This document shows positions 35,886 to 59,958 of a stretch of DNA of 64,000 nt, in pieces. The stretch lies in the UHGV virus genome UHGV-1374897. One strand, given 5' to 3'. Under the pieces are notes generated by a model. The model had not been told where the DNA came from. It saw nothing but the letters and a program-made list of their open reading frames with translations, and made no database searches. The translations under genes were made by a program, and so were the position numbers. The DNA comes from a virus. Position 1 is the stretch's first letter, and each line of letters begins with the position of its first letter.

Positions 35886-35956
35886 GGACGTTAAACTCCC
35901 ACGGAACCCACGGAACCCACGGCCAAATGGTCACAATGGGTTCCGTGGGTTCTCCG
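35886..35956. promoter_or_regulatory. Inverted repeat built from three tandem ACGGAACCC units and the reverse-complement GGGTTCCGTGGGTT
   Basis: 14-bp perfect arms AACCCACGGAACCC / GGGTTCCGTGGGTT with a loop of about 20 nt. Lies between gene 35028 and promoter 35982. Confidence 0.5.
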
Positions 35957-35981
35957 TTGTGTCATACCAATTAAAAATTTC

Positions 35982-36009
35982 TTGACCAGAATCTTCTTCT
36001 GTGTATGAT
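35982..36009 (+). promoter_or_regulatory. Sigma70-like promoter TTGACC-N16-TATGAT overlapping the first ATG of gene 36005
   Basis: The -10 box at 36004-36009 overlaps the ATG at 36005. The next in-frame ATG is at 36017. Confidence 0.4.
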
Positions 36010-37151: not shown

Positions 37152-37523
37152 ATGCAACTTGATTTATCCCACATCCTGCAACTCTACCCCGTCCTGAAGG
37201 TCCTCCATTACCAGACAAGTAGTGGATTCCATCATGAACGATACGACGATGCGGTAGAAGAATTGGGCGGCATTGCCGACAGTTTCATTGAAACCTATCT
37301 CGGACTACATGGCCGCGACTGGATGGTAAAGCCCATGCTGGTGCGTCCCGTGTTGCCTGATACTTCTACTAATTGCATTATCCTGTACAGAAATGTCATC
37401 CTACATGACATCGTTCCCTACCTCTACACCATTGCCGGGAATGAACCCGCGCTAAGGAAACTGGCAGAGGACTTCGAGCAGAGTGCCCAAAAGATTTACG
37501 GACTACTGAACAATTACGTCTAA
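37152..37523 (+). CDS. Hypothetical protein, 123 aa
   Basis: ORF. Confidence 0.4.
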   Translation: MQLDLSHILQLYPVLKVLHYQTSSGFHHERYDDAVEELGGIADSFIETYLGLHGRDWMVKPMLVRPVLPDTSTNCIILYRNVILHDIVPYLYTIAGNEPALRKLAEDFEQSAQKIYGLLNNYV

Positions 37524-37531
37524 TAGAACCC

Positions 37532-38041
37532 ATGCCTACAACAACTCGCGTCCGAGAATTTTTTCTTTGTTCCGACGGCCCGGAGAGCAACCCCGAAGTA
37601 ATAGCCACGGTACTTCCAAGGCTTGACGGGGTTTGCTCCCGCGCCCGGTCCTTGACATGGGGCGTTATTGCCTATTCCCTCTCTCACTTCAACCTGCCCT
37701 TCGGGGTTGCCTTGGAGAACATGAGGAACGGTTATTGTGCCCGCGTCGTAGGAACGTCTACTGGGGAGGAAACCGAAGATGGGGATGAAGCCGCCGACGT
37801 TACCCCTTGGTTCATCCTGCAATCCTTTAAGACCGAGAGCGGCGAATGGGACTACCGTTTCATGGCGTTGGAACCAATAGAGGCAGGAGCCGCCATTGAT
37901 ATGAAGAGGGATTATCTCCTTCCCGATGGATGGTATAAAGTCGGAGAAGAGGTAACTCTTCGCAACGATTTCATCGCCTCCTTCTGTTGGGAGATTGCCA
38001 TTCCCGGCGACCCTCAAAAAATAGAAACCGCAAACGTATAG
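37532..38041 (+). CDS. Hypothetical protein, 169 aa
   Basis: ORF. Confidence 0.45.
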   Translation: MPTTTRVREFFLCSDGPESNPEVIATVLPRLDGVCSRARSLTWGVIAYSLSHFNLPFGVALENMRNGYCARVVGTSTGEETEDGDEAADVTPWFILQSFKTESGEWDYRFMALEPIEAGAAIDMKRDYLLPDGWYKVGEEVTLRNDFIASFCWEIAIPGDPQKIETANV

Positions 38042-38052
38042 ACGAATAAATC

Positions 38053-38292
38053 ATGAACGACAAAGTAGCTATTTTAGAAGACAAAGGATTTGGATTCTTC
38101 CGAGTAACTCACTGTGGAAGTGTCATTGCAGATTTTCTTTACTGCACTGGCTCTGGTGAACAAGGATATATGACACGAGATTCCGCAAAGAAACTGGCAA
38201 CGAAGATTGCCCGCTACGTAGTTAGCAGAGGGACAGTTTGTACCATCGAGGGAGTATCACTTAACCAAATCTATTTCAACACCGATGACTGA
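38053..38292 (+). CDS. Small paralog 1 of 7 (subfamily A), 79 aa
   Basis: GFFRV...CGSVIADFLYC...GYMTRDSAKKLATKIARYV. Shares 28 nt identically with paralog 6. Confidence 0.6.
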   Translation: MNDKVAILEDKGFGFFRVTHCGSVIADFLYCTGSGEQGYMTRDSAKKLATKIARYVVSRGTVCTIEGVSLNQIYFNTDD

Positions 38293-38521
38293 CACTCTAA
38301 ATATTACCACCGTAGATGACCCCGATATCGGGTTTTTCTGGGTCCTGCTTGAAAACTGTTGCGTTGCCACCTTTTACTATTGCGTGAAAGATGATAGTGG
38401 CTTCTTCACCAAGGAGCAAGCTAAGAAACTGGCCGACAAGCTCTCCCGCAAAATTGAGAAGAGCATGATTATCGAAACCGAAAAGGGAATCAAATTGGAA
38501 AGGAACAACATCAATGAATAA
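38285..38521 (+). CDS. Small paralog 2 of 7 (subfamily B), 78 aa
   Basis: GFFWVLLENCCVATFYYC...GFFTKEQAKKLADKLSRKIEKS. ATGA overlap with its neighbour. Confidence 0.6.
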   Translation: MTDTLNITTVDDPDIGFFWVLLENCCVATFYYCVKDDSGFFTKEQAKKLADKLSRKIEKSMIIETEKGIKLERNNINE

Positions 38522-38750
38522 CGATTCAGATACCCGTGTTTATGACCTCCCTACTAGCGGAATGTTCCGCGTCAGGCACAGAGGAAGTTGCGTCGCCGTT
38601 TTCAACTATTGCGTGGCAGATGAAAGCGGCTTCTTCACCAAGAAGCAAGCTAAGAAACTAGCCATCAAGCTCGCCCGCAAAATTGAGAAGAGCACGGTCA
38701 TAGAAACAAAGATGGGAATCAAACTTAAAAGGAACAATACTAATGACTGA
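38514..38750 (+). CDS. Small paralog 3 of 7 (subfamily B), 78 aa
   Basis: GMFRVRHRGSCVAVFNYC...GFFTKKQAKKLAIKLARKIEKS. Confidence 0.6.
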   Translation: MNNDSDTRVYDLPTSGMFRVRHRGSCVAVFNYCVADESGFFTKKQAKKLAIKLARKIEKSTVIETKMGIKLKRNNTND

Positions 38751-38985
38751 CACTCTAAATATTACCACCGTAGATGACCCCATTGCCGGATTTTTCCGGG
38801 TCATGCTTGAAAACTGTTGCGTTGCCGCCTTTTACTATTGCACGGAAGGCGAGGAAGGACATTTCACCAAGAAGCAAGCCAAGAAGCTGACCGAGAAGCT
38901 AGTCCGCAAAATTGAAAATAGTACGACCATCAAAACCAAAAAAGGATTTAAACTTAAAAGGAACAACAATGACCAACGAGATTAG
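38743..38985 (+). CDS. Small paralog 4 of 7 (subfamily B), 80 aa
   Basis: GFFRVMLENCCVAAFYYC...GHFTKKQAKKLTEKLVRKIENS. The first 36 nt of the coding sequence are identical to paralog 2. Confidence 0.6.
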   Translation: MTDTLNITTVDDPIAGFFRVMLENCCVAAFYYCTEGEEGHFTKKQAKKLTEKLVRKIENSTTIKTKKGFKLKRNNNDQRD

Positions 38986-39217
38986 TATTGTAGATAATAA
39001 GAGAGTAGGAATCCTCAAGGTGAAATATGAGGGAGATACCTTTGCCATCTTTAACTATTGTCAGGAGGGAGACGAGAAGGAACAGTGTTATCCCACGCGC
39101 GAAAGGGCTATAGAAATGGCGAAGATGGTTGCTCGCCATCTCATCCACGCGAATCCCGTTATGACAGAAAGGGGCATTGACCTTTACCCGACAGACTATA
39201 CAATCCAAGACGAATAA
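38969..39217 (+). CDS. Small paralog 5 of 7 (divergent subfamily C), 82 aa
   Basis: GDTFAIFNYCQEG...YPTRERAIEMAKMVARHL. Longer ORF call is 38912..39217. Confidence 0.5.
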   Translation: MTNEISIVDNKRVGILKVKYEGDTFAIFNYCQEGDEKEQCYPTRERAIEMAKMVARHLIHANPVMTERGIDLYPTDYTIQDE

Positions 39218-39220
39218 ATC

Positions 39221-39466
39221 ATGAATGACAAAGTAAGAATTTTCGAGAATAAAATGCTCGGCGGGTTCGAAGTGGAATATGATGGGATTGCCGTTGCCCA
39301 ATTTTTCTACTACACAGAGTGGGACGAACGGGGCTTCATGACGCGAGACGCGGCAAAGAAACTGGCAACGAAGATTGCCCACAAAATTGAGAAGAGCATG
39401 ATTATCGAAACCGAAAAGGGAATCAAACTACTTAAACCGAAAAGGAACAACAATGACCAACGATAA
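39221..39466 (+). CDS. Small paralog 6 of 7 (subfamily A), 81 aa
   Basis: GGFEVEYDGIAVAQFFYY...GFMTRDAAKKLATKIAHKIEKSMIIETEKGIKL. Shares 46 nt identically with paralog 2. Confidence 0.6.
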   Translation: MNDKVRIFENKMLGGFEVEYDGIAVAQFFYYTEWDERGFMTRDAAKKLATKIAHKIEKSMIIETEKGIKLLKPKRNNNDQR

Positions 39467-39710
39467 ATATCTACTGGAAACCTTCTTAATGGAATACCCG
39501 CGAGCAGGAATCATTGCGGTGATTCATCGAAACTACCGTATCGCTATGTTCCCCTATCACAGGAATGAGGATGAGAAGGGACTTCCGACAAGAGACTTCG
39601 CCCTCGAAATGGCAATCGAACTTCGTGACAAGATTAAGAAATGCACGACGGAAGAATCCGACACGGGGATTACCTTCGTCGAAAAGGAACAACCAATCTT
39701 CAATGACTAA
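39453..39710 (+). CDS. Small paralog 7 of 7 (divergent subfamily C), 85 aa
   Basis: IAMFPYHRNEDEKGLPTRDFALEMAIELRDKIKK. Confidence 0.5.
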   Translation: MTNDKYLLETFLMEYPRAGIIAVIHRNYRIAMFPYHRNEDEKGLPTRDFALEMAIELRDKIKKCTTEESDTGITFVEKEQPIFND

Positions 39711-40140
39711 CAAACGCAGATTCAAAAAGGGAGACCTTGTTCGGTTCATCAACACAGGAAGACATCCCGGGAGATGTCTAGGTCTAGTGGAAGGTTCCCT
39801 CATGTATGTTCAAGAGGTTGAGGATAATAACTTCGAAATCCTTGTCAAGGACAGAGACAACGCATGGAGGCGGCTTCCCTTCTACGAGTTTGAGCTAGTG
39901 GAAGAGACCGAACATGAAGTCTTCGTCCGATACACACGGGACGAGGCTATCATCCTCTTCAACTATCAGCCCGTTCTCCGCATACCTACCAGATATAAGC
40001 TGGGCGACCAAGAGGTTGACATGTGCTGTGAGGTAGAGGACTGGGCTAATCAAATCGTTGAGGACCTTAACGAGCATGTCATATTACCAGATATAAACAA
40101 AACCAAAAACGAAAATGAAAGCAGGACCCGGAAAAGTTAA
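39703..40140 (+). CDS. Hypothetical protein with N-terminal SH3/KOW-like KKGDLVRF..TGR domain
   Basis: Longer ORF call is 39565..40140; the likely start is MTNKRRFKKGD. Paralogous N-terminal domain with the next gene. Confidence 0.45.
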   Translation: MTNKRRFKKGDLVRFINTGRHPGRCLGLVEGSLMYVQEVEDNNFEILVKDRDNAWRRLPFYEFELVEETEHEVFVRYTRDEAIILFNYQPVLRIPTRYKLGDQEVDMCCEVEDWANQIVEDLNEHVILPDINKTKNENESRTRKS

Positions 40141-40630
40141 GACCAGATTTAAGTGCGGGGACATCGTTCGCAGAGTAGATACGGGGAGATGCGGGACCTG
40201 CGGGGATAGCATCCCAACAGGGTCTATCCTCCGGGTAATGTCCGACGAGGATGTTGCTGGTGTCGTTCGTGTCCATTACCCTCAAGCGGATAGTGAAGAC
40301 GAAGAGATACAGGATGTCATGTGGTATGAAATCGAACCCGTACCCACGGAAGCCAAGGTAGAAGTAACCTCGGATATAGTTCGAGTTAAGTTGGACACCT
40401 ATGTTGTCGCAGGAATTACCAACGAAATCCCCACCCCGTTGGGCACTCTTCATTTCAAGCAATGGGGTGAAGAGATTGCCCAGTCGATGGCTAACATCAT
40501 TAACCTTCAAATCTCATTGGGGAAGCTAACCCCTGACGGAATCAAAGTAGAAAAAACTAATGACAAGGAAAGACAAGATAAAGGAAATACAGAAGTGGGC
40601 GGGAACTTCACCCGACGGTATCCTTGGTGA
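40115..40630 (+). CDS. Hypothetical protein with N-terminal SH3/KOW-like KCGDIVRRVDTGR domain
   Basis: Shares a GD.VR...TGR...GS...V...ED..W.E.E.V pattern with the 39703 gene. Confidence 0.45.
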   Translation: MKAGPGKVKTRFKCGDIVRRVDTGRCGTCGDSIPTGSILRVMSDEDVAGVVRVHYPQADSEDEEIQDVMWYEIEPVPTEAKVEVTSDIVRVKLDTYVVAGITNEIPTPLGTLHFKQWGEEIAQSMANIINLQISLGKLTPDGIKVEKTNDKERQDKGNTEVGGNFTRRYPW

Positions 40631-41318
40631 TAAGACCATTGATGCTATATGGAAGAAGATACAACCCACGGTTTCCGTGGAACCCGATGAACAACCCAAC
40701 GATTCCCCGGTATCCGCGGCATACGTGTCCCCGGCAGAGCTTGTCCGCAAGGGCATGGCTAAGAAGATTCTCAACATGGAGGATTACAAGATTACCGGGC
40801 CGGAATCTCTGCGCGTAACTCGCCTCCCCTCTGGCGACGGCGGCGGCACGTGGGAGATTGCCGGTATCTGTGATGGGATTGAACCCAAGGAATTCAATCT
40901 AATCAAATCCATGTTGGACCGGGGCGATAGAGAAGCGGCATGGGATGAATGCCTCCGCTATGTTCTCGCTAATACGGAACCACTGGTTGCCAAGGGAGTT
41001 GCAGGATGCTACGCCATTGAGTTCATGCTTCGCGACATGACCTTCAACATGGGTGTGGCGGGAACGACTAAGGTCGTCCAGCGCATGCTCGACATTGGTA
41101 TTGACGGCAAGTGGGGGAAAAATACCCAAGCCAAATGGACACATGCCATTCAATCATGGGATGAAATGGTAGTCCTCGATTTGCTGGACCGTGCTTGTCG
41201 TGCCCGCTATCATTCCATTGTAAGGGCCAATCCGGTGAAGGAAAAGTTCCTTACGGGCTGGATGAACCGATGCGATGCACGACATGCTTACGCCCTAACT
41301 CTGTTGTCAAGGAAATAA
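40560..41318 (+). CDS. Putative endolysin: GH108-like muramidase with peptidoglycan-binding segments
   Basis: GILGDKTIDAIWKKIQ and VQRMLDIGIDGKWGKNTQAKW resemble PG-binding helices. SGDGGGTWEIAGI resembles the GH108 catalytic region. Confidence 0.5.
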   Translation: MTRKDKIKEIQKWAGTSPDGILGDKTIDAIWKKIQPTVSVEPDEQPNDSPVSAAYVSPAELVRKGMAKKILNMEDYKITGPESLRVTRLPSGDGGGTWEIAGICDGIEPKEFNLIKSMLDRGDREAAWDECLRYVLANTEPLVAKGVAGCYAIEFMLRDMTFNMGVAGTTKVVQRMLDIGIDGKWGKNTQAKWTHAIQSWDEMVVLDLLDRACRARYHSIVRANPVKEKFLTGWMNRCDARHAYALTLLSRK

Positions 41319-41330
41319 GTGGGGAATTTT

Positions 41331-41360
41331 CTTGACCCGTTAAACCCCAAATGATAACAT
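41331..41360 (+). promoter_or_regulatory. Sigma70-like promoter TTGACC-N18-TAACAT, followed by hairpin GGCGGCAAGG/CCTTGCCGCC abutting the start codon of gene 41386
   Basis: TTGACC at 41331-41336 and TAACAT at 41355-41360. Confidence 0.35.
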
Positions 41361-41808: not shown

Positions 41809-42247
41809 TCAGTTGCAAAAACGAATTCGCGCGTGTGGCGAAAAGATTCATGCACGGAATCAATTCTATGCCTCCCTTCCTCTTGGTCGCGAGGGTGAGC
41901 TAAAACTGCCCAGAAACCAATGGGCCTATTTTTTACGAGGGAAAGTAGGAATTCGTTATGACGGCGAGACCCTTACCTCTTCGGTTACACAGGTTAAAAC
42001 TCGTGAAGAAGTTCAACTGCCAAGAATTATTGACGCGGAGAGAAGCCATAAATTACTTGTCATACGAGGATATGTTATTGACAGGAGAACAAACCGCACC
42101 TATTATCGGGGCGAGACAGTAAGTTTTCAGCGGGGAGAACCAATGCAATTAACGTTGAACGGACATGTGCACATGTTGTGGACACCCCCGCTTCCCGGTG
42201 CAATCATGCCGTTCTATCAAACCAATATACATGGCCTTAATTCCTAA
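41735..42247 (+). CDS. Hypothetical protein, 170 aa
   Basis: ORF. Confidence 0.4.
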   Translation: MKLFNLFRKSPEQEQLENELSRNLSQLQKRIRACGEKIHARNQFYASLPLGREGELKLPRNQWAYFLRGKVGIRYDGETLTSSVTQVKTREEVQLPRIIDAERSHKLLVIRGYVIDRRTNRTYYRGETVSFQRGEPMQLTLNGHVHMLWTPPLPGAIMPFYQTNIHGLNS

Positions 42248-45122
42248 CACTCCGGCCTCCAACCCACAGCCTCCGACGATACCCATTGGAACCACGGATT
42301 CCTCGTGGCGCAATGGGTTCAGTCCTGACAGGCCAATGGGTGAGCCGATAATTAACTTTCCCACTCCTGTGGTAAAGAACGTGATGTTCTTCGTTGAGAG
42401 GATTGCCAAGAATCCCAGCGAGATTACCATTGAATTGGGAACTCCGTTCGTACCCACCGCAGGTACGACCTTCCTCCCGTTCATGCGGGATGCAGTTCTC
42501 GTGCATGTCGAACCCGTCAATGAGGCGGCGAGACAGCACGTTTATCGTTTCTACTACATGGTCCCGCCGGAACAGCAGTTCCGATATAACATTCAGGACA
42601 TGAAGAAAATCCGTGACGGCTATACGTTGAAAGATACTGCCGCTACGGGTAAGTTCATGGGTCCGGATGCAGACACGGAAGAGTTGAAGGACTTCTACGA
42701 GATTACACGGGAATGGGTGGAACCCACGGATTCCGCGTATGCCCCGCTCCCTCTTGGCTCGTTTGACCCCAGCAACGAAAAGCTTGACCCTGACTTCTAT
42801 GACCAGCATTTCTACACGGCATACGATGCCCAGCTGGTATATGAAGAAGTAGCCCAGTTCGAAGAGGAACACCTGCGCAAGTACTTTCGTAGGGTCATCC
42901 GTGTGTATAAAACCCTGCCCGGCCCGGTGGTTAAAGAGTTCGTCCCTTATAACATTTGGCAGAAGGGAGATACGGTGTGGGATGAAGGTGGTCCGGGAAC
43001 GTCCCTGCCCGAATCTGAATGGGTGGCGCAGACTGCAATTAAGTTATCGAGAGAGGTCTGGGCCGCGCCGCTTTGGCCCGTCGATGGCGGAGGGAAGGAA
43101 CCGGGACAGGCTCGCATTCCTCACATGCCCCTCCTTGAACTGGACAATAAGCCCGTTAGTGCTGGCTGGGACAAGGGCAGTTATCCGAGTACGCAGATGT
43201 ACACCCTTGTATCTATGTACAAACGGAACAGTAACATTGCGGAGAAAGAGGAACAGAACAGCCTCTCCGGTAATTGTTGTAACCCTGATTCCCGTTTTGT
43301 CCGGTGCATCAATACAACCGTGACGACTAGCCAGTCCGTTGACTGGACAGCGAACGGCAATGTCCCGGCGATTGACCCTCCTGACCCCGGCGAGAACTGT
43401 AGCCAATGGCGTGTAGATTCCTCTGTGGTGGTCCATGAAGGATATAGCCACAAGGAAACGCGAAAGAGTTGCACCACCTACGACCAGATTGATGAATTCT
43501 GGGAATCCTCGTTTGACAGGATAACCAATCAGGTCTATCCTGTACTGCGGAAGATTGTACATAATCCGAGCACTGACTTCGATACCGATTGGCAGAAGGA
43601 AGGATTCACCAAATACACGGATGCCGTGGGCAATACCTACTATGGCCGGAAGCTGGAAACCCCGGAAACCGAGGAAGCCATTACCATCCCCGACACGCCG
43701 TGGACCAAAATCGGATATAACCTTTCTGACTTTACTGCGGTTGAGGATTCGGTCCCGGCCACGGGTATGCTCCATACCATGTCCCTCATCAATGGATGGA
43801 ACGACCCCAGTTACCCCCAGTTCGCGAATACTTTTGCATTGCTCGGCTCGTTTAGTACGGACAACCAGCATGCTGACCGAGGTATGAACGTGGGCATCCG
43901 GTTTAAGGGTATGCGCTGGTGGAACATATATATCCAGAACAGCTATCCCGAAGTCCAATCCCCCGGCACGATTGAAGCAGGATATTATTACAACGCCCCC
44001 AACCCTGACGGTCCGTGGCTGACACAGAACGGCCAGTACAAGATTGGGATGGAAGCGATTATCCGTGATACCCTCTATGCGGAGGGCGTAACGAGCGCAC
44101 CGTGGACGTTCCCACTGGGCGTCATGGATGGTACTGCCATCTACCAGCGAGCCAATGGATATAACCCAGAGATGAAATTCTCCGCGGGCACATTGCCCTC
44201 TGGTATTGGCAACGTATATCTGGATGTGGAGAACGGCCAGCTGAACATGACCGCCATTGTCATTAACCCCAATGGCAATGCCATCAATGGAATCATCCCC
44301 ATCCACATCAACGGGACAGAGGTCTTTAATATTGAGGTAGTCACGACTAGCAATACAGGACAACCCGACCTGCCGGAACCTACGGTCAATACATCGAACG
44401 GCGCGAAGACTAAATACCGTGCCGGGAACTATGTCCTTAACGCCGCAGTTGCCGAGAAGATTACCCTGACCTACGACGGAACGAAGTTCCCCTACTTCCA
44501 GTTCGGTGTCACTATATGCAGTCTCCGAGGCAATACGTTCAAGGTCACGATGAGCGACAAAATTCAGCGCGTCGTCCTGCGCCAATGGGTGAACCCCTGC
44601 TACGCCGTAGATAGTTACATGCAGATTCCGGGAATCGGGTACTACAAAAAATATACTACGACGATGAACTACAGTTTTCCCGCCGTGCTCGGTACAGTTC
44701 GTTGGGTTCCGTGGACTACGAGGCCCGACCTTTCTGGCAAGAATGCTGGACAGTACTTCCCGCAGACCACGATGAAGAGGGACAGCTATTCCGGTCCCTG
44801 CACTGCCGTGGTTGAAGAGGCATTCTCCCCTGACGGTACATGGCCTAAGGGCTGGGGCCTAGGTACTTCACCGCAGTTCACGACGAACAGCGGGTACTTC
44901 TCCACGCCGCTTTGCGATTACCGTATGCCCGCATGTCTCCATGCGCCCATGAATGTCTCCGTAACAATCGGCAATCAGGATGCCAAGTGGCTTCCCGGTG
45001 CGTTCAATACCACGTTCGCCGGAACCTCCGAGACTGACTGGAAACCCGTGACCTCCTATTACGCATCCCCATGGAACGGCGGCATGTTGTGCAAGAAAGT
45101 AACAATCTATCCTCCCAATTAA
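42231..45122 (+). CDS. Large structural (tail or receptor-binding) protein, about 963 aa
   Basis: Longer ORF call is 42165..45122; the probable start is the ATG at 42231. Asn/Gly/Thr/Trp-rich beta-type composition. Confidence 0.5.
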   Translation: MALIPNTPASNPQPPTIPIGTTDSSWRNGFSPDRPMGEPIINFPTPVVKNVMFFVERIAKNPSEITIELGTPFVPTAGTTFLPFMRDAVLVHVEPVNEAARQHVYRFYYMVPPEQQFRYNIQDMKKIRDGYTLKDTAATGKFMGPDADTEELKDFYEITREWVEPTDSAYAPLPLGSFDPSNEKLDPDFYDQHFYTAYDAQLVYEEVAQFEEEHLRKYFRRVIRVYKTLPGPVVKEFVPYNIWQKGDTVWDEGGPGTSLPESEWVAQTAIKLSREVWAAPLWPVDGGGKEPGQARIPHMPLLELDNKPVSAGWDKGSYPSTQMYTLVSMYKRNSNIAEKEEQNSLSGNCCNPDSRFVRCINTTVTTSQSVDWTANGNVPAIDPPDPGENCSQWRVDSSVVVHEGYSHKETRKSCTTYDQIDEFWESSFDRITNQVYPVLRKIVHNPSTDFDTDWQKEGFTKYTDAVGNTYYGRKLETPETEEAITIPDTPWTKIGYNLSDFTAVEDSVPATGMLHTMSLINGWNDPSYPQFANTFALLGSFSTDNQHADRGMNVGIRFKGMRWWNIYIQNSYPEVQSPGTIEAGYYYNAPNPDGPWLTQNGQYKIGMEAIIRDTLYAEGVTSAPWTFPLGVMDGTAIYQRANGYNPEMKFSAGTLPSGIGNVYLDVENGQLNMTAIVINPNGNAINGIIPIHINGTEVFNIEVVTTSNTGQPDLPEPTVNTSNGAKTKYRAGNYVLNAAVAEKITLTYDGTKFPYFQFGVTICSLRGNTFKVTMSDKIQRVVLRQWVNPCYAVDSYMQIPGIGYYKKYTTTMNYSFPAVLGTVRWVPWTTRPDLSGKNAGQYFPQTTMKRDSYSGPCTAVVEEAFSPDGTWPKGWGLGTSPQFTTNSGYFSTPLCDYRMPACLHAPMNVSVTIGNQDAKWLPGAFNTTFAGTSETDWKPVTSYYASPWNGGMLCKKVTIYPPN

Positions 45123-47073: not shown

Positions 47074-50000
47074 ATGGCCATTGACTTTAGTACCGCCAAT
47101 ATGTCCGACTTCACTCCGAAGTCGGGAAGCAGTATTGCACGTGAACAGCGAGCCGTAGAAAGGCACGCCGCGTGGCAAGAGACGCAAGCGCAGAAACAAG
47201 AAGACAGAAAACAGAAAGCACTGGACCGCGAGCAAAGGCTAGCGGAAAAGAGACAGACCCGTGCGGAGAAAGCCGCAGAAGCCACCGCAGAGTTTGACAC
47301 CTTTATCGTTAAGTCCGTGGATGCCTTTGCGGAGAAACAGAAAAAGGATGCGGAACACGCGAAGAATGTAGAATGGCAAGATAAATCCCGCGCCCATACG
47401 GAACAAGAATGGAAAACCGCCGAGGAAAATAAAGCCCTCGACATCTTGAACAAAGGAAACCGTGGGTACAGCTTTGAGGGAATCGACTACATGAAAGACT
47501 ATGTAGAGCGCGGAGAGGATGCACTGGTTGATTTGACGGCCGCCGCTCGTGGCGATAAGGATGCTATTAAAAAGATTACGAATAATACGGGCATCGTCGC
47601 AGTCCTTTCCTCCGAACTTCCTCCCCAACATTCTGCATTCTTATCCCGCTCTGGCTTCGGAAGTGGAGAGGACGGGAACCCCGTCGTAACGGAAAAGTTC
47701 CTCGCTATTGCCGCGGACAGAAACCGTAACGCAAAGGCGGTGGCCAAATCCATTGCCACCACAATGGAGAAGGCCCGGAAGGATTACCTCAACAAGAATC
47801 TAGATGTTGTGTCTGGTAAACCTACGGCACAAGCCATCGAGACCGCACCTATTGCTTACACCGCAGAAGAAATAGAAAGCGTCATCAATACGATTAGGCG
47901 CGAAGACATTGGCAACTATCGTGCCGCTAAGGCTCTTTACGACAAACACCGCTCTTCTTCGACGGAGGGCGTGCAGAAGAAAACCCCCAGCCAAACGAGC
48001 GTGGGGGAGCTTGGCGTTGGCGAATTCTCTGATTCAGCACCTTCATTTACTGGGAATGTTTTTGCTGAACTCGCCAACCTTTCCAAGTCTCCCAGCAAAA
48101 TGTTCCGACTTGTCCGCGACTACGGGGATTACCTGTCCCGGAGTACGGAAGATATTAAATCCCCGGAAGCCAAGGAATCCGATTCCCTTTCTCCCGCCGC
48201 TAAACGTGCAGGGGAAATGGCAGTAGCGCAGGTTAAAGCCGTGGACAACATTGTCTCGCGGATGGAAGAGAGCTACACCGGATTGGATGCCGTGGGACTA
48301 AGGGATGCTCTCCTTAACCCCGAAGCAGTAGCTTCTGCGGCATTGGCCCTTGCCCCCGGCGTGGACATGGATGCAGTGCGCGAACGAGCAAATACCTTAG
48401 CCACCGAGCGTCATGCCGTGGTAACCTCCGACTACCAGAAAGCAATGGCTGATGCCATGATGGAAGAATTGGCTACAAGGTTTCCGGGGGTTCCGAAGAA
48501 TATATTACTACAGGCCGGGACGACGAAACTGATTCAGGACTATACCACCAAAGCTACACCGAGAGGCACCCTCATGGATGCAGTCAAAGGCGCACTGGCT
48601 AACTACCGAAGCGCGGCAGGACAAGTTGCGGACGTACTTACCTTCCAACCGGGGAATAGTGTGGGCAAGACCACTGACCCAATGAGTACGATGGAATGGA
48701 GGAAGGGAACGAGGCACGGCTCTTGGGAGTATGGTGTAGTGGGAGGCCCTGCCTTTGAAGTAGGTCCCGAACAGTTGAAGGAATACATGGCCCAGTACCA
48801 TATTGAAAGTACTCGCGATGCCCTTAACTCCCTCTCCCATGCCGCACGTATGGGTGACTTGGGCGTAGGTCGTGGCAGTCTCTTTGCGTACAACCCGCAC
48901 ACCAAGGAAGTTGATACGAACGCCACACTCGAACTGAACCCCAATGCTCTCTACAATGATAAGCTGATGGACCAGAGCATAGAGGCTCTCCGTGCTAGTG
49001 GCGCGGACGAAGGTCTCATCAATCGCACCATTGAGAAGTTCCAGAACCTCCGCAAGAAATCCGCACAGGAACTTGTGAAGGACAACATTGCATTGGACGA
49101 GACGCTGGGGACGCTTCGCGATACGTGGCTTGGCTCCGGCTTGCAGTTCAACCCTATCTTGACTGAATCCATGAAGCATCTGGACAAGCACCTTTCCTTC
49201 AAGAATTTTTACAACGAACAGAAGGAAGTGGGCAAGAGTGACGAGGACATCCTCTCCGCATGGCAGGAGAAAGGGCAAGACACCATCAACTCTGTTCTCC
49301 GTGGGTTGCAGATAGGTACACACAAGGCAATCGACCTTGGGACAGGTGCCGCCTATGGTGCTCTTCTCTTTGCACAGAATGCAGTTGGCAGTCGTGCGGC
49401 GATGGAACATACCCGCACCCTCTGGGACCAGCTGAACAAAAAACAGGAAGCGGAAGCTGAACTTGTTCGAGGCAATATCCTTGCGGATTATACTGCGGAA
49501 ATCGCTAACCTCGGCTACCAAATGGTAGCAACCGCGGGGGCTGGTAAAGTTGGCGGCCTCGCTGGGCGTGCACTGGAACGTACCGCGCTATCGCGGTTCG
49601 CGAAGGCAACGGCTAACGTTGTAGCGAAGCGGGCAGAAGCTCTTGTCCCTGCCGCCCGTCCGGGATTGGCGGGACGTTTGAGTGGAACTATTCAGCGCAA
49701 CCTCGACAACCTTGCGGCGTTGAACCTCGAACGGGCAGGAGCTGGAGCCGGGGTAAATCTTAGCATCATCTCGCAGGTTGCACCGAATGCTTACTCCGAC
49801 ATCTTCTATACCATTTATGATAGGGAGATGGAAGGGAAGGAACCGACTGCCGAGAACACGAACAGGGCACAGAGCATTGCCAACATGCGTGCCCTCTTTG
49901 GTGCGGCTCTCGTATCTACTGGTAGTACTCTCATCAACAACCGCGCAGGTATGGATTCCTTCATGCGTAAGATTGTTGGGGCTAAAAACCTTCGCGGTCA

Positions 50001-53000
50001 ATCTCCATTCCAAACTCTTGAACGGAAGATGGCCGGATGGAGAAGCAAGCCATTTAAGGAGATGAACACGAAGAAAAAGACGTTTGCCGTTGCTTCCTAT
50101 CTGTACAGCACGAGCAAGGCCGTAGTGGAAGGAGCCACCGAAGAACTGGCAGACGAATTCCAAGAATGGGCATTTACCGAACTGGTGAAGAACGGAGAAA
50201 TCTCTGAATCTTCTATTGCCACTACCGACCAAGTGATTAGCGGTGCCATAAAGATTGCTTTCCTCGGAGGTATCGGCGGCTACGTTGGTAGCCACTTAGC
50301 TGGTGAAGGGAACATACGTTTCCAAACCGAAGCCGCTCCAACTCTCGATGTAAAGGATGCTACTTCCATGCTACCGGATATTACGAAAGATGCGAGCAAC
50401 ATCATCGAGGAAACGGGCAAAGCCATTACCAAAAACAATGTGCCGGAAAGCTTGGTAGAAACCGGAAAGAAGGTTATCGAGATTGCCGGGGAGAAGGGGG
50501 ATGCCGCGGAAGTTGCCCGCGAATGGGTGGACAAATCCATTGCCCATGAAAGTCTAGTTGTCTCCGACGAAACCCGCAAGGCATGGGTGGATGGCGCAGT
50601 CCGTATGGGTATCAGCAACTTCACCCAGTTCCGCAACCTAGTTGAACGGGCCTCCGAAATACATACCTATGAGGGCAGTGCCGCGGCAAGCTCCTTCATG
50701 GCAGAAGCCATTAACGACTTGCCCAATACCCTGTCATTCCCAAATAAGGAAAACCTCGACACCATGCGAACCATGTTGTCCGAAGCCCTTGATGCTATGG
50801 GAGACCGGGTTCAGGTTATCGAAGTAGACGACGACCTGTCCATCATTACTACAGGGGACGAGGACCTTGATGCCGCCATTAACGTTATTAACGGATTGAC
50901 GGAAGCCGCGGCTACCACGGAATCCCCGGCTACCACGGAATCCCCGGCTACCACGGAACCCAAGGAATCCCCGGTAGCTATTGCCCGGAAGGAGAGGGAC
51001 AATGCTATTGCCCCCATCACTGCTATGGTAGAGACGGGAGTAGTTACCCCCAGTTCCGTGGAAACCGTGGATAACATGGATGCGGCAATCGCCTCGTTCG
51101 ATAGTAATACTGGTGCGTGGCTCTCCTATGGTACGCCATTGGAGCGCGGCGCGAAGCTCGTCTCCTTGAACGAGATGACCGGGATTAACGCCCCCATGAT
51201 TACCAGCAACACGGGAGAAACCATTGTCATCGCTCCGCACGCAAGCATGTACAACACAGGTGAGGGAGGTACCCCCAGCACCAAGTGGGGAGACAAGGTC
51301 TCCGCTCTCAATCTCCCGACGGATGGGACTGGCGCAAATGCCTATGGCATCCTTTCGGACCTTCAAGCTAATGCCTCCCCCGCACAGGCCGCGGCCATTG
51401 ATGGAGTGCTCCGCGCACTGCATGCCGCTGGTTTGGATGTTGCTATCCGAGCCACCAATGCCCCGGCGAACATCTCTTCCCCCGCCAGTATCACCTACAT
51501 GAACGGCACGGACGGGAAGCTTGTCGGCGGTGTCATTGACCTGTACGTGGACCGGGACAATGCGATTGAAAGCGTAACGGGAACGGTACTACACGAAGTC
51601 ATCCACCTCATTGACCGTCATCTTCGTGCCACCAACGCGGACTATTCCCAGCGGATGGATAAGATTAGAAGCGCGATTGCAGAGAACTACAACAATATTG
51701 TTGATAGTCTCTCCGCTATGTATGATGCTAGCGTGGACATCAATGAGATGAACGCCATCGCCGCGCTCGCTTCTGACCTCAACTATGGTCTCCGCGGCCC
51801 GGACGAATTTGCCAGTGTCGCGTTCTCCAATCCTGTCATGAACTTCATGATAGCGGAAGCTAGCGGAGACAATATAACCATCACGGATTTGGCTCGCTAT
51901 GCCGAAGCGGCTGGAGGCAGGAGGCCCATTCATGTGCGCCTCATCGAATGGCTTAAGGATTTGATTAGGGACGTGCAACAAACTGCGGACGCTATGGACG
52001 GAACCACCGCCGCAGAACACGTGGCTGAATGGGATTCCTATGTGGCCCGCATCGCGGACATGACCCCCGGCAAGTGGTTCGACATGCCTCGCACTCCGTC
52101 ATGGAAGGTAGACGATACGGATTATACTATGGGCAACGGGGTAGATTATTTTAACCCGATGGCCTATGAGACTGACATGACCCGAAGACTGTCCTTCGGT
52201 CTGGCCGCAGAAATCATTGGCACGAATGCCGGGAACTGGGTAACCAGTATTAAGAACGGATGGCTGGGTGCAACCAAGAACTGGGACAAGGCTGGCATCA
52301 ATGTTAAGTCCGAGGAACAGAAGCTGGTTGTGCTGGAACAAATGGCCAACGTGAATGCGGCATACGAACGTAGTATTAAACGCATTGACAAAATTGGCGA
52401 TATGCTTCAACGCCGTGCGGATAAGCTGGGCTGGGATGCCGCTACGCGAAAGAAATGGAGCAAGTCCATTCTTGACATGTCGGGGAATATGGACAACGAT
52501 ATTGACCCTGAAACTGTTGCACGCATTAACGCAGAGGCTCAAGCAGAAGTTCGTCAGCATGAACAGACCCGCGACTTCCGTATCGCGTTGGCTAAGAAGA
52601 CCGTCACCGATGCCGTCAATAGGCACGCGGAAGCGGTGCGTCTGGCTAACTCCCTTGCGCTTAATAGTGAAGGGAGATTGGAAATCAACGACATGATGCG
52701 CCGGATTAAAGACATGAGCGTCAAGGGATATGGTGCCATGCTGGACAAGCAGGTAGCTCTCCCCATGCTTTCCCAGCAGATTCACAAATCGCTCTCCGAC
52801 CTTGGCTCTCGTATCTCCGCGACGGGGAATGCCAATCTGGAAACCACCTACTTTGGCCTTGCCCGCGACACACAAAACTATCTCGCGGATATGATTAACG
52901 AGGTGGATAGTCCCTTCTCTATGGATGAACTTCTGGACAGGTGGTCCAACCTTCGCAATGACTTCCTCTATGCGGAGAGTACAAACCATCCCACCATCGT

Positions 53001-56000
53001 CCCTATGATTCAGGACATCGCTAAGACACGGGCCGAAGCTAAACAAATCATCCGGGAAGCCAAGGATGATTTCTACGCCGCAACAAAGCGAGCGGGCGTA
53101 ACTCGCGCTGGCGTAGCTACCCCTGCTGGTTCCGTGTGGCTGAAACGGGACAACGCTATCCTCAATGCACGCCGTCAAAAACAAGCGGAGTATATGGCTA
53201 AGCGGGATGCCGCTGAACAGTGGCTTCTGTCACAGGGGGTTGTAGGTCAACTGGTCCACAATGTCATCGCCAATTCCCGTAAAGAAATTGCCGCAACGCA
53301 AATCTCTATTGCCAAGCTCATTGGAGATAGCCGCATGGCTGACAACGCCGCGGAGATGAATTATCTTCATCGCACCTACATGGCCGTAGGACGCCATGCC
53401 GGAGACTTCACCCGGACGATGAAGGACATCATCGCAAACCCCAACGGAGAACTGGCGCAGAAATACGACGGTCTGACGAAACTGTTGCAGGAAGCCGCAA
53501 TCTCTCATGCCGAAGCGCACCAGAGAGAACTGTCCGAAAACGTAAGCCAAGTGCTGGACAACATGCAGGCATTGGCCGCGCTCCACGACGAGTTGAAACT
53601 TCCGCTGGTGTCAGCTCCCACGGGAGCCTCCGCGAATTATAAACTCCTGTTCGAGGGTGTAGCCAAGAACTACAGGAACAGGGAAATTCTGGACTTCATT
53701 CAGAACAACTTCGGCCAGGTTCAAATGCTTGCAGATTTGAGGGACGGCCACAACATCAGTGCCATATATAATAAGGCCATGAGCATGATAGCACAGGCAG
53801 ACTATCGCACGAAGTCAAAGATGACAGAGGCGAAGGAAACTCTGGACATGAATGCCAGAGATAGTTTCCTCGCTGATGTCTTCTCCAGCCTTCCGGGAAA
53901 AACGATTGCGGACAAAATTGGCAGTCTTCAATCCCCGGCATCCGTGGCTTCCGAAGTGAACAAGGCCATCCCCACTATCCCGACTTCGGCCATTGACCAG
54001 ATATGGAACACGCCCGATATGAATGCCGCAGAACGACTGGACAAGACGCTCAATCTTCTTCGCGGTCAGGCTGGCGTTCTCATGAGGATGAACGGCATGG
54101 GCAACGTCATCTCCGCTACCGACTTGAAAGCGTTGCAATATCCGGAACTCTCCCGCCTCGCAGTGAACGATGCCATGAAGGCCATTGACGAAGTTCTGTC
54201 CAAGAAGAGGACGAATGAAGATGCGCTGGCCCAGCGGAAACGCTTGCCCGAATGGCAGAGGAAAGCTATGTATGAACTTAGCGACCTCACCATTGGGGAT
54301 GCCATTGGGACGTTACAGAATACCCTATCCATGCAGTCGAAGATTGCCGTGAACCAGTTGCTTGCTGACGAGTATGCCTCCGTACTGAAAGCGCAGGGTG
54401 TGGTCGTACCCCCGAATTCCACAAACCGTACCTCGGACATGGTGGAAATCTCCTTGAAGAATACGAAGAATGCGTTGAACGGAATGTACGCCGACAAGGA
54501 TGTAGCCGATGCCATCTACCGCATCTACAGACCGAGCGACGACATCCTGAATAACAGGACGGACGACTATAAGGAGGTGCGCAAGTACTGGCAGAAGTCC
54601 GGCAAGGGGCAAGGATGGTGGAATAAGGCGGGTGGCTTGGCTAACCTTTCTGTCTTAATAGCGAGTCCTAATTCCACGTTACGTAACTTATATGGTACAG
54701 TAGCTCAAATGACCCATGCGGGTGCACTCCCATTCACGGGGAGTAAAGACATCGCAAACCTTGTCGGGGACTGGGTCCAGTTGCGTAAGCTATGGTGGCT
54801 ATCACAGGGCAAGGACCTTGCTTCACAGGCTTCCGCGGATAGACTGCTGGCCGCGGAAGACAGGTACAACGAGAAGATTCGCTACTGGCAAGAGCTTGGT
54901 CTGCTGGACGCAGGTCAAGGGGAGTTCCTGCGCAACGTCTGGAAGTCTGACGAGTTCAGTAAGATGGCAGGAGAATTTGAAGAAGTGAATGAGGATTCCT
55001 TCTTCAAACTGGCCGAAGCTCTGAACGAGAAACAGGAACGGACGAAGGGCGAGGTGGCTAAGGATGCCGCCAAGATGGCGGGCAAAGTCGTAGCATGGCC
55101 CATCAAAACGATGTCCTTCGCCTATGGCTTGCCGGACGCGGCGGCCAAGATTGTTCTCTTCACTAACCAGAGAGCGATTGCCGATACCCAATTAAAGGTA
55201 CAACTGGCGCGGGCGAAGGGCAAGGCCAACCCCAATGCGCGGGACCAGATACTCATTGACGCGAGCCAGACTACCCAGAGTTGGGATGCTTATGTGGACA
55301 GGTATACTGCCCACATGGTGAAGAGCTTGCTCCCCACGGGTTCGCGTACTCCTTCGTGGGTGAAAACCCTGAATATAGTTGCGGCTCCGTTCTTCATGTT
55401 CCAGTACCATACCTTCCAGTCTGTAGCCTACAACCTTGGCCACGCCATAGGTGAAGGGGTAGACGGTGTGTGGGCTATCAATAACGGCATGAAGAAGGAG
55501 GGGGCTTACCTCTTGGGACGCGCTATCCTTCGTACCGCGGGTTCCTTAGTAACTATTTCTGCAACCTCTGCGGTCTCTTCCTGGGTTGCCCGACAGATTA
55601 TCGCCAGTGTCTTGGGAGATGACGATGACCGTAAAATCATTGACGACGCGGAAGTCATGAGGAAGCTGGCAGATAGTGGGCTAATTCCTGACTATGATAA
55701 GTTCGGGGACTTGATTGGCATCATAGATATGAAGCGACATGAGTTCGAGTATTTGAACCTTGAATACATGAACCCGTTCAAGACCATCAGGGTGTTAGCC
55801 AAAACCCTGCCCAGCCTCTTCATGGATATGGATGTGGACAAGTGGGGGATGAACAAGGTTGCCGAACTGAAAAACCTGCTGGAAAATACGGTGCTTGAAG
55901 AATCCCTCCTTCTGAATGCCGCTTCTGAATTGTTTAATGAGGAAGACTTCAATTACAAGCATAGCCTCTCCGGTGATGAAAGCGTCAACGTTCTCCCGGC

Positions 56001-57826: not shown

Positions 57827-57912
57827 GCAACGACATCATTCTGTTTGGACTGTAAGTTGTTTGGGTTCTAAGCGAAAACCCCGGAAGGAAATATCTTCCG
57901 GGGTTTTTGTTT
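57827..57912 (+). ncRNA. Candidate small RNA of about 85 nt between a promoter and a bidirectional terminator
   Basis: Promoter at 57793-57820, terminator at 57872-57913, and no ATG inside. Confidence 0.3.
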
Positions 57913-57913
57913 T
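57872..57913. terminator. Bidirectional rho-independent terminator
   Basis: A-tract, then stem CCCCGGAAG / CTTCCGGGG with loop GAAATAT, then TTTTTGTTTT. Lies between the convergent + and - gene blocks. Confidence 0.7.
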
Positions 57914-58418
57914 AGTTCTGTTTCGCTTCGAGGGATTCTATTAGCTGGGTAATCTCTCCGATACATCGTTGCAATTCTGATGCGGGGTTTACCTCAACCA
58001 ACTTATCATGCGCCCAGATATAGAAGAGCCGTACCAGAATGGAATCTTCGGGACTACGTTGGTAGCTATGGCTCATCACCGTGCGCCTGAACTGTTCAAG
58101 GATAAGGTAAAGGTCAAACGTTTCGAACACCTTGGACCAGTGCTTAGCGTGGTACTCCAAATACCATCGTGCTTTCTTGAGGTCTTCAATACGGTTCTTC
58201 TTGTACTGTGACCGCATCAAATACTTGACGGCGTTCCCTAATGCGAAGGGAAGCTTGCCAGTAATTTCTATGGTCTCGATTCCGCTGGGGTGGGAGGTGT
58301 AATGCTTCGGGTGGTTGACGGCATCGTTCATGGATTCCTTTCCTTCCGGCAGGTCAGGGAAAGCCTGTGAGTTTACCTTGGTTGAAACGATTGCGTTGAT
58401 TGCTTCGTGAGCGTGCAT
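57912..58418 (-). CDS. DUF3310-like phage protein
   Basis: Pattern NHPKHYTSHPSGIETIEI...GNAVKYLMR...EDLKKARWYLEY. Confidence 0.45.
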   Translation of the reverse strand: MHAHEAINAIVSTKVNSQAFPDLPEGKESMNDAVNHPKHYTSHPSGIETIEITGKLPFALGNAVKYLMRSQYKKNRIEDLKKARWYLEYHAKHWSKVFETFDLYLILEQFRRTVMSHSYQRSPEDSILVRLFYIWAHDKLVEVNPASELQRCIGEITQLIESLEAKQN

Positions 58419-58419
58419 G

Positions 58420-59684: not shown

Positions 59685-59958
59685 GAATGATATGTTTGGC
59701 TTTGTAGTTTGCGAGTTCAAGAGTGGGGAATGTCCATCCATACTGGCCCCACTCACTGGTGCTGGGGAGGTATTCATCTCCGGCTTTAACCTCGATGAAA
59801 TCATTGTCCGCTTTGTGCTGACGGATGATGACAACCTCATAATTGTTTACCTTCCCGCTTCCTTTATGGGTTAGCTCATAGATGGCAACGCCCGCCTCAC
59901 GGAAAATGAGACGACAGGTGAAGGGGTTGCGTGTAAATTCGTTAGGAATTTTCTTCAT
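59638..59958 (-). CDS. Hypothetical protein, 106 aa
   Basis: ORF between ThyX and the ligase. Confidence 0.4.
   Translation of the reverse strand: MKKIPNEFTRNPFTCRLIFREAGVAIYELTHKGSGKVNNYEVVIIRQHKADNDFIEVKAGDEYLPSTSEWGQYGWTFPTLELANYKAKHIIHERSMDKSGSHTSAN

Follow-up and report, generated by a model that had tools for sequence, protein, structure and literature searches.

Seven genes lying back to back on the + strand, at 38053-39710 of a 64,000-nucleotide stretch (the window) of an uncultivated phage genome of about 70 kb, encode small soluble proteins of 78 to 85 amino acids (about 9 kDa), each with a single domain, which together form a multigene family specific to one lineage. It is highly probable that the family is also a recombining one, and this forms the evolutionary part of our explanation. 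The functional part, in which the proteins would be accessory modules that bind variable macromolecules of the host or of competitors, is put forward tentatively, and the two parts together make an explanation that we regard as quite possible, if somewhat short of probable. The features of the locus are collected in Table 1.

Table 1. Features of the array and its surroundings, with positions in the window
Feature	Position	Strand	Remarks
Promoter-like motif ATTTCTTGACC	35977..35987	+	Upstream of the gene for a 225-aa protein; putative start of the array's unit
Relic of a deleted E-type copy	38040..38052	+	10 nt of coding end and stop (AGACGAATAA), then the 3-nt spacer ATC
Paralog 1, type A, 79 aa	38053..38292	+	Family profile E = 4e-35
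DNA tandem repeat	38277..38968	.	229-nt period, 3.0 copies, 71% matches; paralogs 2-4
Paralog 2, type B, 78 aa	38285..38521	+	Opens the 229-nt DNA tandem repeat; profile match
Paralog 3, type C, 78 aa	38514..38750	+	Profile match; copy used for the AlphaFold model
Paralog 4, type D, 80 aa	38743..38985	+	First 39 nt equal the start of paralog 2
Paralog 5, type E, 82 aa	38969..39217	+	Divergent, acidic, pI 5.0
Paralog 6, type F, 81 aa	39221..39466	+	Mosaic by tract and half-by-half comparison
Paralog 7, type G, 85 aa	39453..39710	+	Profile match
145-aa protein	39703..40140	+	KOW/SH3-like N-terminal barrel, then β-β-β-(hairpin)-α C-domain
171-aa protein	40115..40630	+	N-domain homologous to the 145-aa N-domain; candidate family-like C-domain
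Endolysin	40560..41318	+	Last gene of the putative unit; phrog_315 E = 5e-17; PG_binding_3 E = 4e-10
Next promoter-like motif TTTTCTTGACC	41327..41337	+	Directly after the endolysin gene

A lineage-specific family of paralogous genes

We compared the seven copies by BLASTP with SEG filtering and composition correction and found that 19 of the 21 copy pairs matched, with E values from 1.5e-4 to 9e-39, while pairs 2-7 and 4-7 gave no match. All seven copies matched the family profile (E <= 1e-33), and their alignment contains nine invariant columns. Copy-to-copy identity is 43-80% for nucleotides and 23-71% for amino acids. An earlier note on this DNA had described paralogous genes with a shared architecture, and both the BLASTP pairs and the profile matches agree with it; the similarity is not one of low complexity, because the matches persist under the filtering and correction. 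The subfamilies of that note fared less well. Copies 5 and 7, which it had placed together, form no clade (identity 38% in the N-terminal half and 17% in the C-terminal half), and its pairing of copies 1 and 6 applies to one half of the gene, the N-terminal half of copy 6 being nearest to copy 1 but its C-terminal half nearest to copy 2.

The genes overlap along the array by 8, 8, 8, 17 and 14 nt, copies 5 and 6 are separated by 3 nt, and copy 7 overlaps the next gene by 8 nt. Tight packing had thus been read correctly, but the junctions are these overlaps and one gap rather than the ATGA or TAATG previously given. From the overlaps, translational coupling of the array genes is plausible. Paralog 5 is counted here from an ATG, the automatic ORF call beginning at a TTG further upstream. 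All seven reading frames are intact, and any gap among them in the protein alignment spans whole codons. Opposite-strand ORFs over the array, such as 38954-39382, were judged spurious, being antisense to conserved coding frames. The locus extends past 39710 into the genes for the 145- and 171-aa proteins.

Scans of all nine proteins and of their neighbours with Pfam, PHROG and PADLOC gave nothing above threshold, and a PDB sequence profile search returned chance matches only (for example RNase A, E = 0.046), in keeping with the earlier failure to recognise the family. Among 1.8 billion representative proteins the family comprises 24 clusters, all from one uncultivated phage lineage, and its genes are always at the same genomic position. 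Against 50,697 GenBank phages, neither megablast with the 6 kb around the array nor tblastn with the terminase gave a match, and therefore there is no cultured relative from which to take annotation; the phage polymerase is at most about 26% identical to those of the same GenBank phages. A scan of genome contigs for a host-linked copy of the family found none, and a tRNA and Rfam search found none present.

Recombination and copy number

Three identical tracts connect non-adjacent copies in the window. Copies 2 and 4 share 39 nt (38285-38323 and 38743-38781), copies 2 and 6 share 46 nt (38449-38494 and 39382-39427), and copies 1 and 6 share 28 nt (38185-38212 and 39353-39380); the latter two had been reported exactly, but the first as 36 nt. 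In a Sawyer-type permutation of polymorphic sites the identical tracts exceeded chance (global p = 0.0002), and for pairs 1-6 and 2-6 the observed run was reached in 0 of 5000 shuffles. Copy 6 is a mosaic whose N-terminal half is like type A, C-terminal half like type B and tail like type D, with a crossover at 39381, between the 28-nt and 46-nt tracts. Ahead of paralog 1, the relic comprises 13 nt identical to the end and spacer of copy 5 (39208-39220) and to the E-A junction of a related contig, L003, in which the A copy is separated from the gene for a 169-aa protein by a complete E gene. The type E gene is at the head of the array in most relatives, versus fifth in the window.

In the comparison of related arrays that the earlier note had proposed, about 30 related contigs had 1 to 7 array copies. 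One relative (L007) lacks 458 nt of the window, or two 229-nt periods, but otherwise equals it, and carries a B/D hybrid gene. Shorter arrays have three copies (L026) or two (L024 and L034), and in one-copy arrays the remaining gene is an A/G hybrid; the C-terminal half of paralog 7 is present in all complete arrays examined. In L048 the flanking proteins of 169, 145 and 171 aa are, by reading, those of the window residue for residue. The A/G hybrid was read on 10 contigs, of which three were fetched, each from a different run. It cannot be a k-mer mis-join, because the longest identical run of copies 1 and 7 is at most 6 nt. The same array architectures were found again in independent metagenomes; some mosaics in the databases could be assembly chimeras. 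About 42% of the 228 distinct family proteins are mosaics, with breakpoints clustered at four conserved blocks (FxYC, FFTK, AKKLA..R and KGIKL). The permutation result, the range of array sizes from 1 to 7 and the hybrids at predicted crossover points uphold the claim of ongoing recombination. Since the hybrid genes are the expected products of unequal crossing-over, most copies are individually dispensable.

Copy-number dynamics have been tied to phage counter-defence genes in T4 tifA (PMC9391042) and in the SegB-driven amplification in T6 (PMC13096335). The array shares with these accordions a copy-number change of a small accessory gene by recombination between repeats, and the dispensability and variation of copies between isolates. 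Copy number varies between close relatives, and hybrids stand at the deletion junctions. However, the copies are not near-identical recent duplicates, as the identities given above show. The T4 and T6 copies are identical, recent and laboratory-selected for dosage, whereas those of the array are old, diverged and natural, and recombination here yields mosaics besides copy-number change.

We compared orthologues within each type and found a median dN/dS of 0.25-0.61, versus 0.12-0.30 in the flanking genes. The orthologues are under purifying selection, and dN/dS was below 1 throughout, with no overall signal of positive selection. In types B, C and D it is mainly the N-terminal sheet that carries the non-synonymous variation, and types A, E and G are strongly conserved across genomes. 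The description of the genes as rapidly diversifying is therefore to be modified: diversity is present, but under purifying selection, and most of it is due to module shuffling.

Predicted fold, neighbouring genes and putative transcription unit

The AlphaFold model of paralog 3 (pLDDT 84.1, pTM 0.72) has a five-stranded sheet and one amphipathic helix in the order β-β-β-α-β-β, with strands at 7-12, 17-22 and 25-32, the helix at 43-59, and strands at 61-65 and 68-72. By column entropy, G16, Y32, A46 and G68 are invariant and V20, T42, F30 and A28 nearly so; glycine and hydrophobic residues predominate among them. The most variable columns (14, 15, 19, 21, 23, 25, 29 and 31) are the β1-β2 turn and alternate positions of β2 and β3, which in the model would be solvent-exposed on one face of the sheet. 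About 76% of members have R, W or K at position 19, and the other positions inferred to be exposed vary freely. The pI ranges from 4.9 to 9.9 across the copies, four of which are acidic or neutral (4.9, 5.0, 5.2 and 6.5), while copies 3, 4 and 6 have values of 9.1-9.9.

AP2/ERF and Arm-type domains have a three-stranded sheet packed on a helix. The best fold matches of the modelled paralog 3 were nucleic-acid-binding AP2 domains, and the N-terminal two thirds of the family have a β-β-β-α core that may correspond to that of AP2/ERF and integrase Arm domains (PF00847 and PF14657). A strand-then-helix segment, G-[FY]-x-T-[KR]-x-x-A, gave repeated sub-threshold matches to Arm-DNA-bind_4. No other Pfam model recurred as often below threshold (it matched 8 of 28 members, with a best E of 0.059), but its best score of 13.4 bits falls short of the gathering cut-off of 22.3 bits. 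The PF00847 model itself gave no match to the family at all, and hhalign of the family against the AP2 sequence of AtERF1 found nothing. The array proteins differ from AP2 and Arm domains in having an extra C-terminal β-hairpin, in apparently lacking conserved Arg/Trp contacts on the sheet, in that over half of them are acidic or neutral, and in standing alone in tandem, unattached to an integrase, HNH nuclease or transcription factor. No match with E < 0.01 came from a Foldseek search of BFVD. A tail-fibre chaperone fold, which the earlier note had named among the results that would count against it, did not turn up in PHROG or BFVD, nor did any other structural protein.

The N-domains of the 145- and 171-aa proteins match each other by BLASTP (E = 6e-6). 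These two proteins alone resemble NusG/Spt5 KOW and SH3-like barrels, with a KOW-like start, F-K-x-G-D-x-V-R, but they have no Pfam KOW match and no NGN domain. Short forms of the 145-aa protein, of 79-88 aa and without the barrel, occur in relatives. An hhalign comparison of the array family with an alignment of the 171-aa C-domain gave E = 0.0011 over 60 collinear columns, relatives have tails such as GIKVERNNDKQRQD, and there are natural in-frame chimeras (P0152 and P0158). The 171-aa C-domain thus probably belongs to the array family, as one of its diverged members. The 145-aa protein possibly carries a family-like C-domain; its homology to the array family is not significant, the topology alone being similar.

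The array sits between morphogenesis and lysis genes, downstream of the terminase and presumed structural genes and just upstream of the endolysin gene and ORFs of 985 and 3218 aa. The motif TTCTTGAC was found 10 times, versus 2.3 expected, with all 10 copies on the + strand and 7 of the 10 in intergenic gaps by comparison with the gap list. TTTCTTGACC was present in 48 of 49 fetched loci, mostly at the same two places bracketing the array unit. These conserved promoter-like motifs appear to bracket a unit that starts at 35979, closes with the endolysin gene and has the array inside. Scans for generic sigma-70 promoters and for terminators near the array gave results close to those expected from shuffled sequence. 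A-rich leaders without a Shine-Dalgarno sequence suggested a Bacteroidota host; the Bacteroidota promoter pattern was not enriched, the repeated intergenic motif being TTGAC-like instead. The KRNN tail is conserved, and with AAAGGAAC in front of the next ATG it might have reflected a Shine-Dalgarno constraint; this reading was dropped because nearly all other genes of the genome have no purine-rich stretch of this kind upstream.

Possible functions of the array

In the explanation that we favor, the array would lie within one promoter-bracketed unit ending at the endolysin gene, and each copy would be an individually dispensable binding module, specific in its own way by virtue of its variable sheet face. 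Together the copies would target variable host or competitor macromolecules, in counter-defence or host takeover, rather than supply virion parts, and recombination within the array would be the main source of new specificities and dosages. An anti-defence function is a guess. Pfam and PHROG showed no similarity to known anti-defence proteins; the PADLOC result is uninformative here, because that collection covers defence proteins but not anti-defence ones. The array resembles anti-CRISPR and other anti-defence clusters in consisting of small, lineage-restricted, unannotated genes that vary between related phages. However, anti-CRISPR clusters usually consist of unrelated genes, and an aca HTH regulator often comes after them, whereas the array is one paralogous family that adjoins a lysis gene, and no HTH gene, of the aca type or any other, was found next to it. 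An early-region position was not found either, and the apparent co-transcription with the endolysin gene suggests late expression.

The main rival, which we consider rather unlikely, holds that the proteins are sequence-specific nucleic-acid binders with an AP2- or integrase Arm-like β-β-β-α core, acting as small regulators or genome-associated proteins. Each paralog would read a different DNA or RNA site through its variable sheet face, and the KOW-like neighbours would link the set to the transcription or translation machinery. The AP2 fold matches, the sub-threshold Arm-DNA-bind_4 matches on the strand-helix segment GFFTKxQAKKLA, the residues at position 19, the basic helix and tail of four copies (including the three of highest pI) and the NusG/Spt5-like barrels next to the array all fit such binders. 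On the other hand, Pfam scores of about 13 bits are far under the cut-off, the AtERF1 comparison was empty, and the positions inferred to be exposed are for the most part hydrophobic or variable instead of conserved Arg/Trp. With four of seven copies acidic or neutral, the spread of pI speaks against a nucleic-acid ligand common to all. A search for repeated candidate operator sites found none, and loss down to one copy would be odd for essential regulators.

That same loss bears on an accessory role in morphogenesis or in the virion, in which the proteins would be assembly chaperones, decoration or cargo produced late, together with structural and lysis proteins. The position of the array between the presumed structural genes and the endolysin, 985-aa and 3218-aa ORFs, the apparent single unit with the endolysin gene, and the tight gene coupling, which would co-ordinate dosage, are in its favor. 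However, a fixed structural stoichiometry should not allow 1 to 7 copies with near-identical flanks, and a fixed structural role is hard to square with most copies being dispensable; with no structural-protein match in PHROG or BFVD and no matching variable fibre gene set identified, we judge this role distinctly unlikely. Dispensability in nature would also be expected if most copies were functionless, either as largely neutral decaying duplicates or as an assembly artefact of a repeat-rich region. The dN/dS values are somewhat above those of the flanking genes, and short-read assemblers can mis-join repeats. This reading is nevertheless very improbable, given the seven intact frames with whole-codon gaps, dN/dS below 1, the confident model of paralog 3, identical architectures in different metagenomes, and an A/G hybrid on 10 contigs although its parent copies share identical runs of at most 6 nt.

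A bolder form of the binding-module explanation, which we think unlikely, is that the array is a built-in combinatorial diversification cassette. The FxYC, FFTK, AKKLA and KGIKL blocks would serve as crossover sites that make new combinations of N- and C-modules, and new dosages, of an undescribed binder fold, tracking host targets such as defence proteins. Such a cassette would resemble antigenic-variation cassettes, used here by a phage. If the copies are host-matched inhibitors, the locus would show how a lytic phage makes binder diversity by array recombination and not by point mutation, and it would also supply a new small scaffold. If they are AP2-like nucleic-acid binders, the array would be an unusual stand-alone expansion of the AP2 fold in a phage.

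Small phage proteins with no assigned function make up most of the viral "dark matter," and the array is a clean natural example of a dark-matter family with a confident predicted fold. Its natural variants of one to seven copies serve as ready-made deletion and chimera mutants. The phage lineage appears to be common in metagenomes, the exact paralog 7 protein having been found on 315 contigs.

Array genes and exchange between copies

All seven genes claimed for the array in the earlier note were found at the claimed starts on the plus strand, and copies 1 to 7 are called types A to G in order. The seven proteins aligned end to end with nine invariant columns. BLASTP with low-complexity masking and composition correction matched 19 of the 21 copy pairs (E = 1.5e-4 to 9e-39; no match for pairs 2-7 and 4-7), so the paralogy is not just a matter of low-complexity composition. 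The family profile matched each copy at E <= 1e-33 and no other ORF in the window. Instead of the proposed ATGA or TAATG junctions, we found overlaps of 8, 8, 8, 17 and 14 nt and a 3-nt gap separating copies 5 and 6. Only 11 nt lie between the preceding gene and the array. Copies 5 and 7 had been placed in one subfamily, a grouping that we rejected: their N-halves are 38% identical and their C-halves 17%.

Coordinates of features in the window
Feature	Position	Strand	Remark
VapE-like primase-helicase, family A polymerase, helicase, PD-(D/E)XK nuclease			replication module, first in window
Resolvase, then large terminase subunit	terminase at 15129		after replication module
254-aa ORF	17660-18424	+	just past terminase region
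Inverted repeat	~35895-35945		by eye, approximate
123-aa gene	37152-37523	+
Relic	38040-38052		directly 5' of copy 1
Copies 1-7 (starts)	38053, 38285, 38514, 38743, 38969, 39221, 39453	+	79, 78, 78, 80, 82, 81, 85 residues
Identical tract 1	38285-38323 = 38743-38781		39 nt
Identical tract 2	38449-38494 = 39382-39427		46 nt
Identical tract 3	38185-38212 = 39353-39380		28 nt
145-aa gene	39703-40140
171-aa gene	40115-40630
Endolysin	40560-41318	+	after array
985-aa ORF	42165-45122	+	downstream of lysis genes
3218-aa ORF	47074-56730	+	downstream of lysis genes
Nucleotide kinase, thymidylate synthase, NAD-dependent DNA ligase	57912-61987	-	closes window
TTCTTGAC sites (7 of 10)	2875, 7516, 13480, 29584, 29664, 35979, 41329	+
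TTTCTTGACC places	35977, 41327		5' of 225-aa gene; just past endolysin

The three identical tracts reported between copies were all real, the first being longer than the 36 nt described. The genes sharing them are only 60-80% identical overall. A Sawyer-type permutation over 180 polymorphic ungapped sites gave a global p of 0.0002, and the observed run was reached in 0 of 5000 shuffles for pairs 1-6 and 2-6. Copy 6, previously grouped with copy 1, does share the 28-nt tract with it; however, it is a chimera in which this tract and the 46-nt tract of copy 2 lie one base apart (39381). The copy 4/copy 5 junction recurs where the tail of copy 6 meets the next gene, and the DNA of copies 2 to 4 is a tandem repeat with a period of 229 nt. 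The array is tightly packed, changing in copy number and reshuffled by inter-copy recombination; the permutation result bears out the claim of recombination within the window, and hybrids and copy-number variants in relatives carry it well beyond that. The 13-nt relic, AGACGAATAAATC, is identical to 39208-39220 and consists of the last 10 nt of a deleted E-type copy plus the 3-nt spacer.

Array variation across the lineage

From a database with clustering at 90% identity, the family profile retrieved 199 proteins at E <= 0.01; among the matches listed, carrier contigs ranged from a few hundred bases to ~104 kb, many near 65-71 kb. At 50% identity the family amounted to only 24 clusters among 1.84 billion representatives, and in these searches it is restricted to one phage lineage. 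Its place is constant, between the 169-aa and 145-aa genes, and the exact copy-7 protein was present on 315 contigs.

Arrays were typed on 24 IMG/VR contigs together with ENA and Logan contigs. The most frequent orders were Z E A C D G, E A C D G and E A B C D G, and the order A B C D E F G was found in the window and one other contig (loci L006 and L025). One related locus (L007) matches the window except for 458 missing nt, or two 229-nt periods, and carries a B/D hybrid gene; a C/D hybrid was present in two others (L028 and L042). Two loci (L024 and L034) were reduced to an A/type-2 hybrid plus G, one (L026) retained three copies, and two from different runs (L048 and L049) had a single A/G hybrid left. 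By reading, the 169-, 145- and 171-aa proteins flanking the hybrid in L048 are residue-identical to those of the window. Since no stretch of more than 6 nt is identical between copies 1 and 7, the A/G hybrid is not a k-mer mis-join. Contracted arrays carry hybrids as expected, and most array copies are individually dispensable.

Switch-penalised painting of 228 proteins classified ~42% as mosaics, with breakpoints at four conserved blocks. Assembly chimeras may account for some of the mosaics, but not for the architectures that recur in independent metagenomes. The locus represents a new protein family and behaves like the tandem gene accordions of phages, in a version that has diverged and forms mosaics.

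Protein family and possible function

The array proteins had no sequence match in Pfam, PHROG, PADLOC or the PDB, in agreement with the earlier statement that the family was not recognised. The sole recurrent sub-threshold match, to the integrase Arm DNA-binding domain (8 of 28 members, best E 0.059), covers the GFFTKxQAKKLA segment. The AlphaFold model of copy 3, built on a 28-sequence alignment, was confident (pLDDT 84, pTM 0.72) and has three strands (residues 7-12, 17-22 and 25-32), followed by a helix (43-59) and a hairpin (61-72). Among 228 distinct members, G16, Y32, A46 and G68 were invariant and V20, T42, F30 and A28 nearly so, and entropy peaked in the b1-b2 turn (14, 15) and at alternate b2/b3 positions (19, 21, 23, 25, 29, 31). 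Because residues alternate along the strands, we infer that the most variable positions lie on the exposed face of the sheet.

With hhalign, the array family and the C-domain of the 171-aa family aligned in collinear order over 60 columns (E = 0.0011), an array-member-like tail such as GIKVERNNDKQRQD ends the 171-aa protein in some relatives, and two natural in-frame chimeras (P0152 and P0158) fuse array N-halves to the 171-aa C-domain at the aligned position. We therefore regard the 171-aa protein as probably a ninth member of the family, extended at its N-terminus. The 145-aa protein resembles the family in predicted topology only (b-b-b, inserted hairpin, helix), its sequence comparison with the array family not being significant; short versions of 79-88 aa exist, without the barrel. 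In the window the 171-aa and endolysin ORFs overlap by 71 nt, which may reflect a read-through variant or a misplaced endolysin start; in relatives the 171-aa equivalent ends earlier (146-156 aa) or does not overlap the endolysin gene.

Median dN/dS within orthologous types was 0.25-0.61, against 0.12-0.30 in flanking genes, and in types B, C and D the non-synonymous differences gathered mainly in the sheet at the N-terminus. The family is genuine and specific to its lineage; its members are small folded proteins on which selection is purifying but relaxed, and we give very little credence to the copies being junk or artefact. Because conservation falls mostly on hydrophobic and glycine residues, the inferred surface is variable and charge differs widely (isoelectric points of the seven copies, 4.9 to 9.9), the array could be a set of binding modules, each with a different specificity.

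We tentatively favor such a binder or host-interaction model. Since copies are dispensable and vary in presence and absence, an accessory role in host interaction, for example counter-defence or takeover, fits better than a structural one, and a function in the virion or its assembly seems improbable. Precedents for counter-defence genes that change in copy number come from T4 and T6 (PMC9391042, PMC13096335). What counts against host interaction is the position beside the endolysin, which points to late expression, and the fold likeness of the array proteins to AP2 and of their neighbours to KOW; the array also carries no known anti-defence signature. AP2 and KOW folds bind nucleic acid or the transcription machinery, and the two likenesses argue for array proteins that bind nucleic acid, a reading we consider unlikely but deserving some weight. 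Natural variants with one to seven copies already exist, which makes the locus well suited to experiment.

Genome setting and putative transcription unit

The window covers most of a phage genome, for which comparisons with GenBank phages found no cultured relative. About 20 kb of unannotated genes after the terminase are presumably structural. The 254-aa ORF weakly matched an HNH-endonuclease PHROG (E = 1e-5). The 985-aa and 3218-aa ORFs, giant orphan proteins, had no detectable domain and no Pfam or PHROG match. Outside the closing module almost all genes are on the plus strand, where gene leaders are A-rich. No purine-rich Shine-Dalgarno-like stretch was seen 5' of nearly all genes in the window, and the Bacteroidota -7/-33 pattern was not enriched there.

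The TTGAC-like motif TTCTTGAC occurred 10 times (2.3 expected), always on the plus strand and, by comparison with the gap list, mostly between genes. Its longer form, TTTCTTGACC, was present in 48 of 49 related loci, mostly at the same two places. The motif is a candidate promoter -35-like element defining transcription units, and one such unit would comprise four unannotated genes, the array, the 145-aa and 171-aa genes and the endolysin. The 123-aa protein of this putative unit weakly matched phrog_858 (E = 3e-5), annotated as 'starvation-inducible transcriptional regulator', and its match to DUF5856 (E = 1e-4) was below the cut-off. The long inverted repeat cccacggaaccc ... gggttccgtggg, just 5' of the upstream motif, could be the terminator of the preceding unit. 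In one related locus (L047), an IS605 OrfB (TnpB-like) gene at 135-950 stands where other loci have the 225-aa gene of the putative unit.
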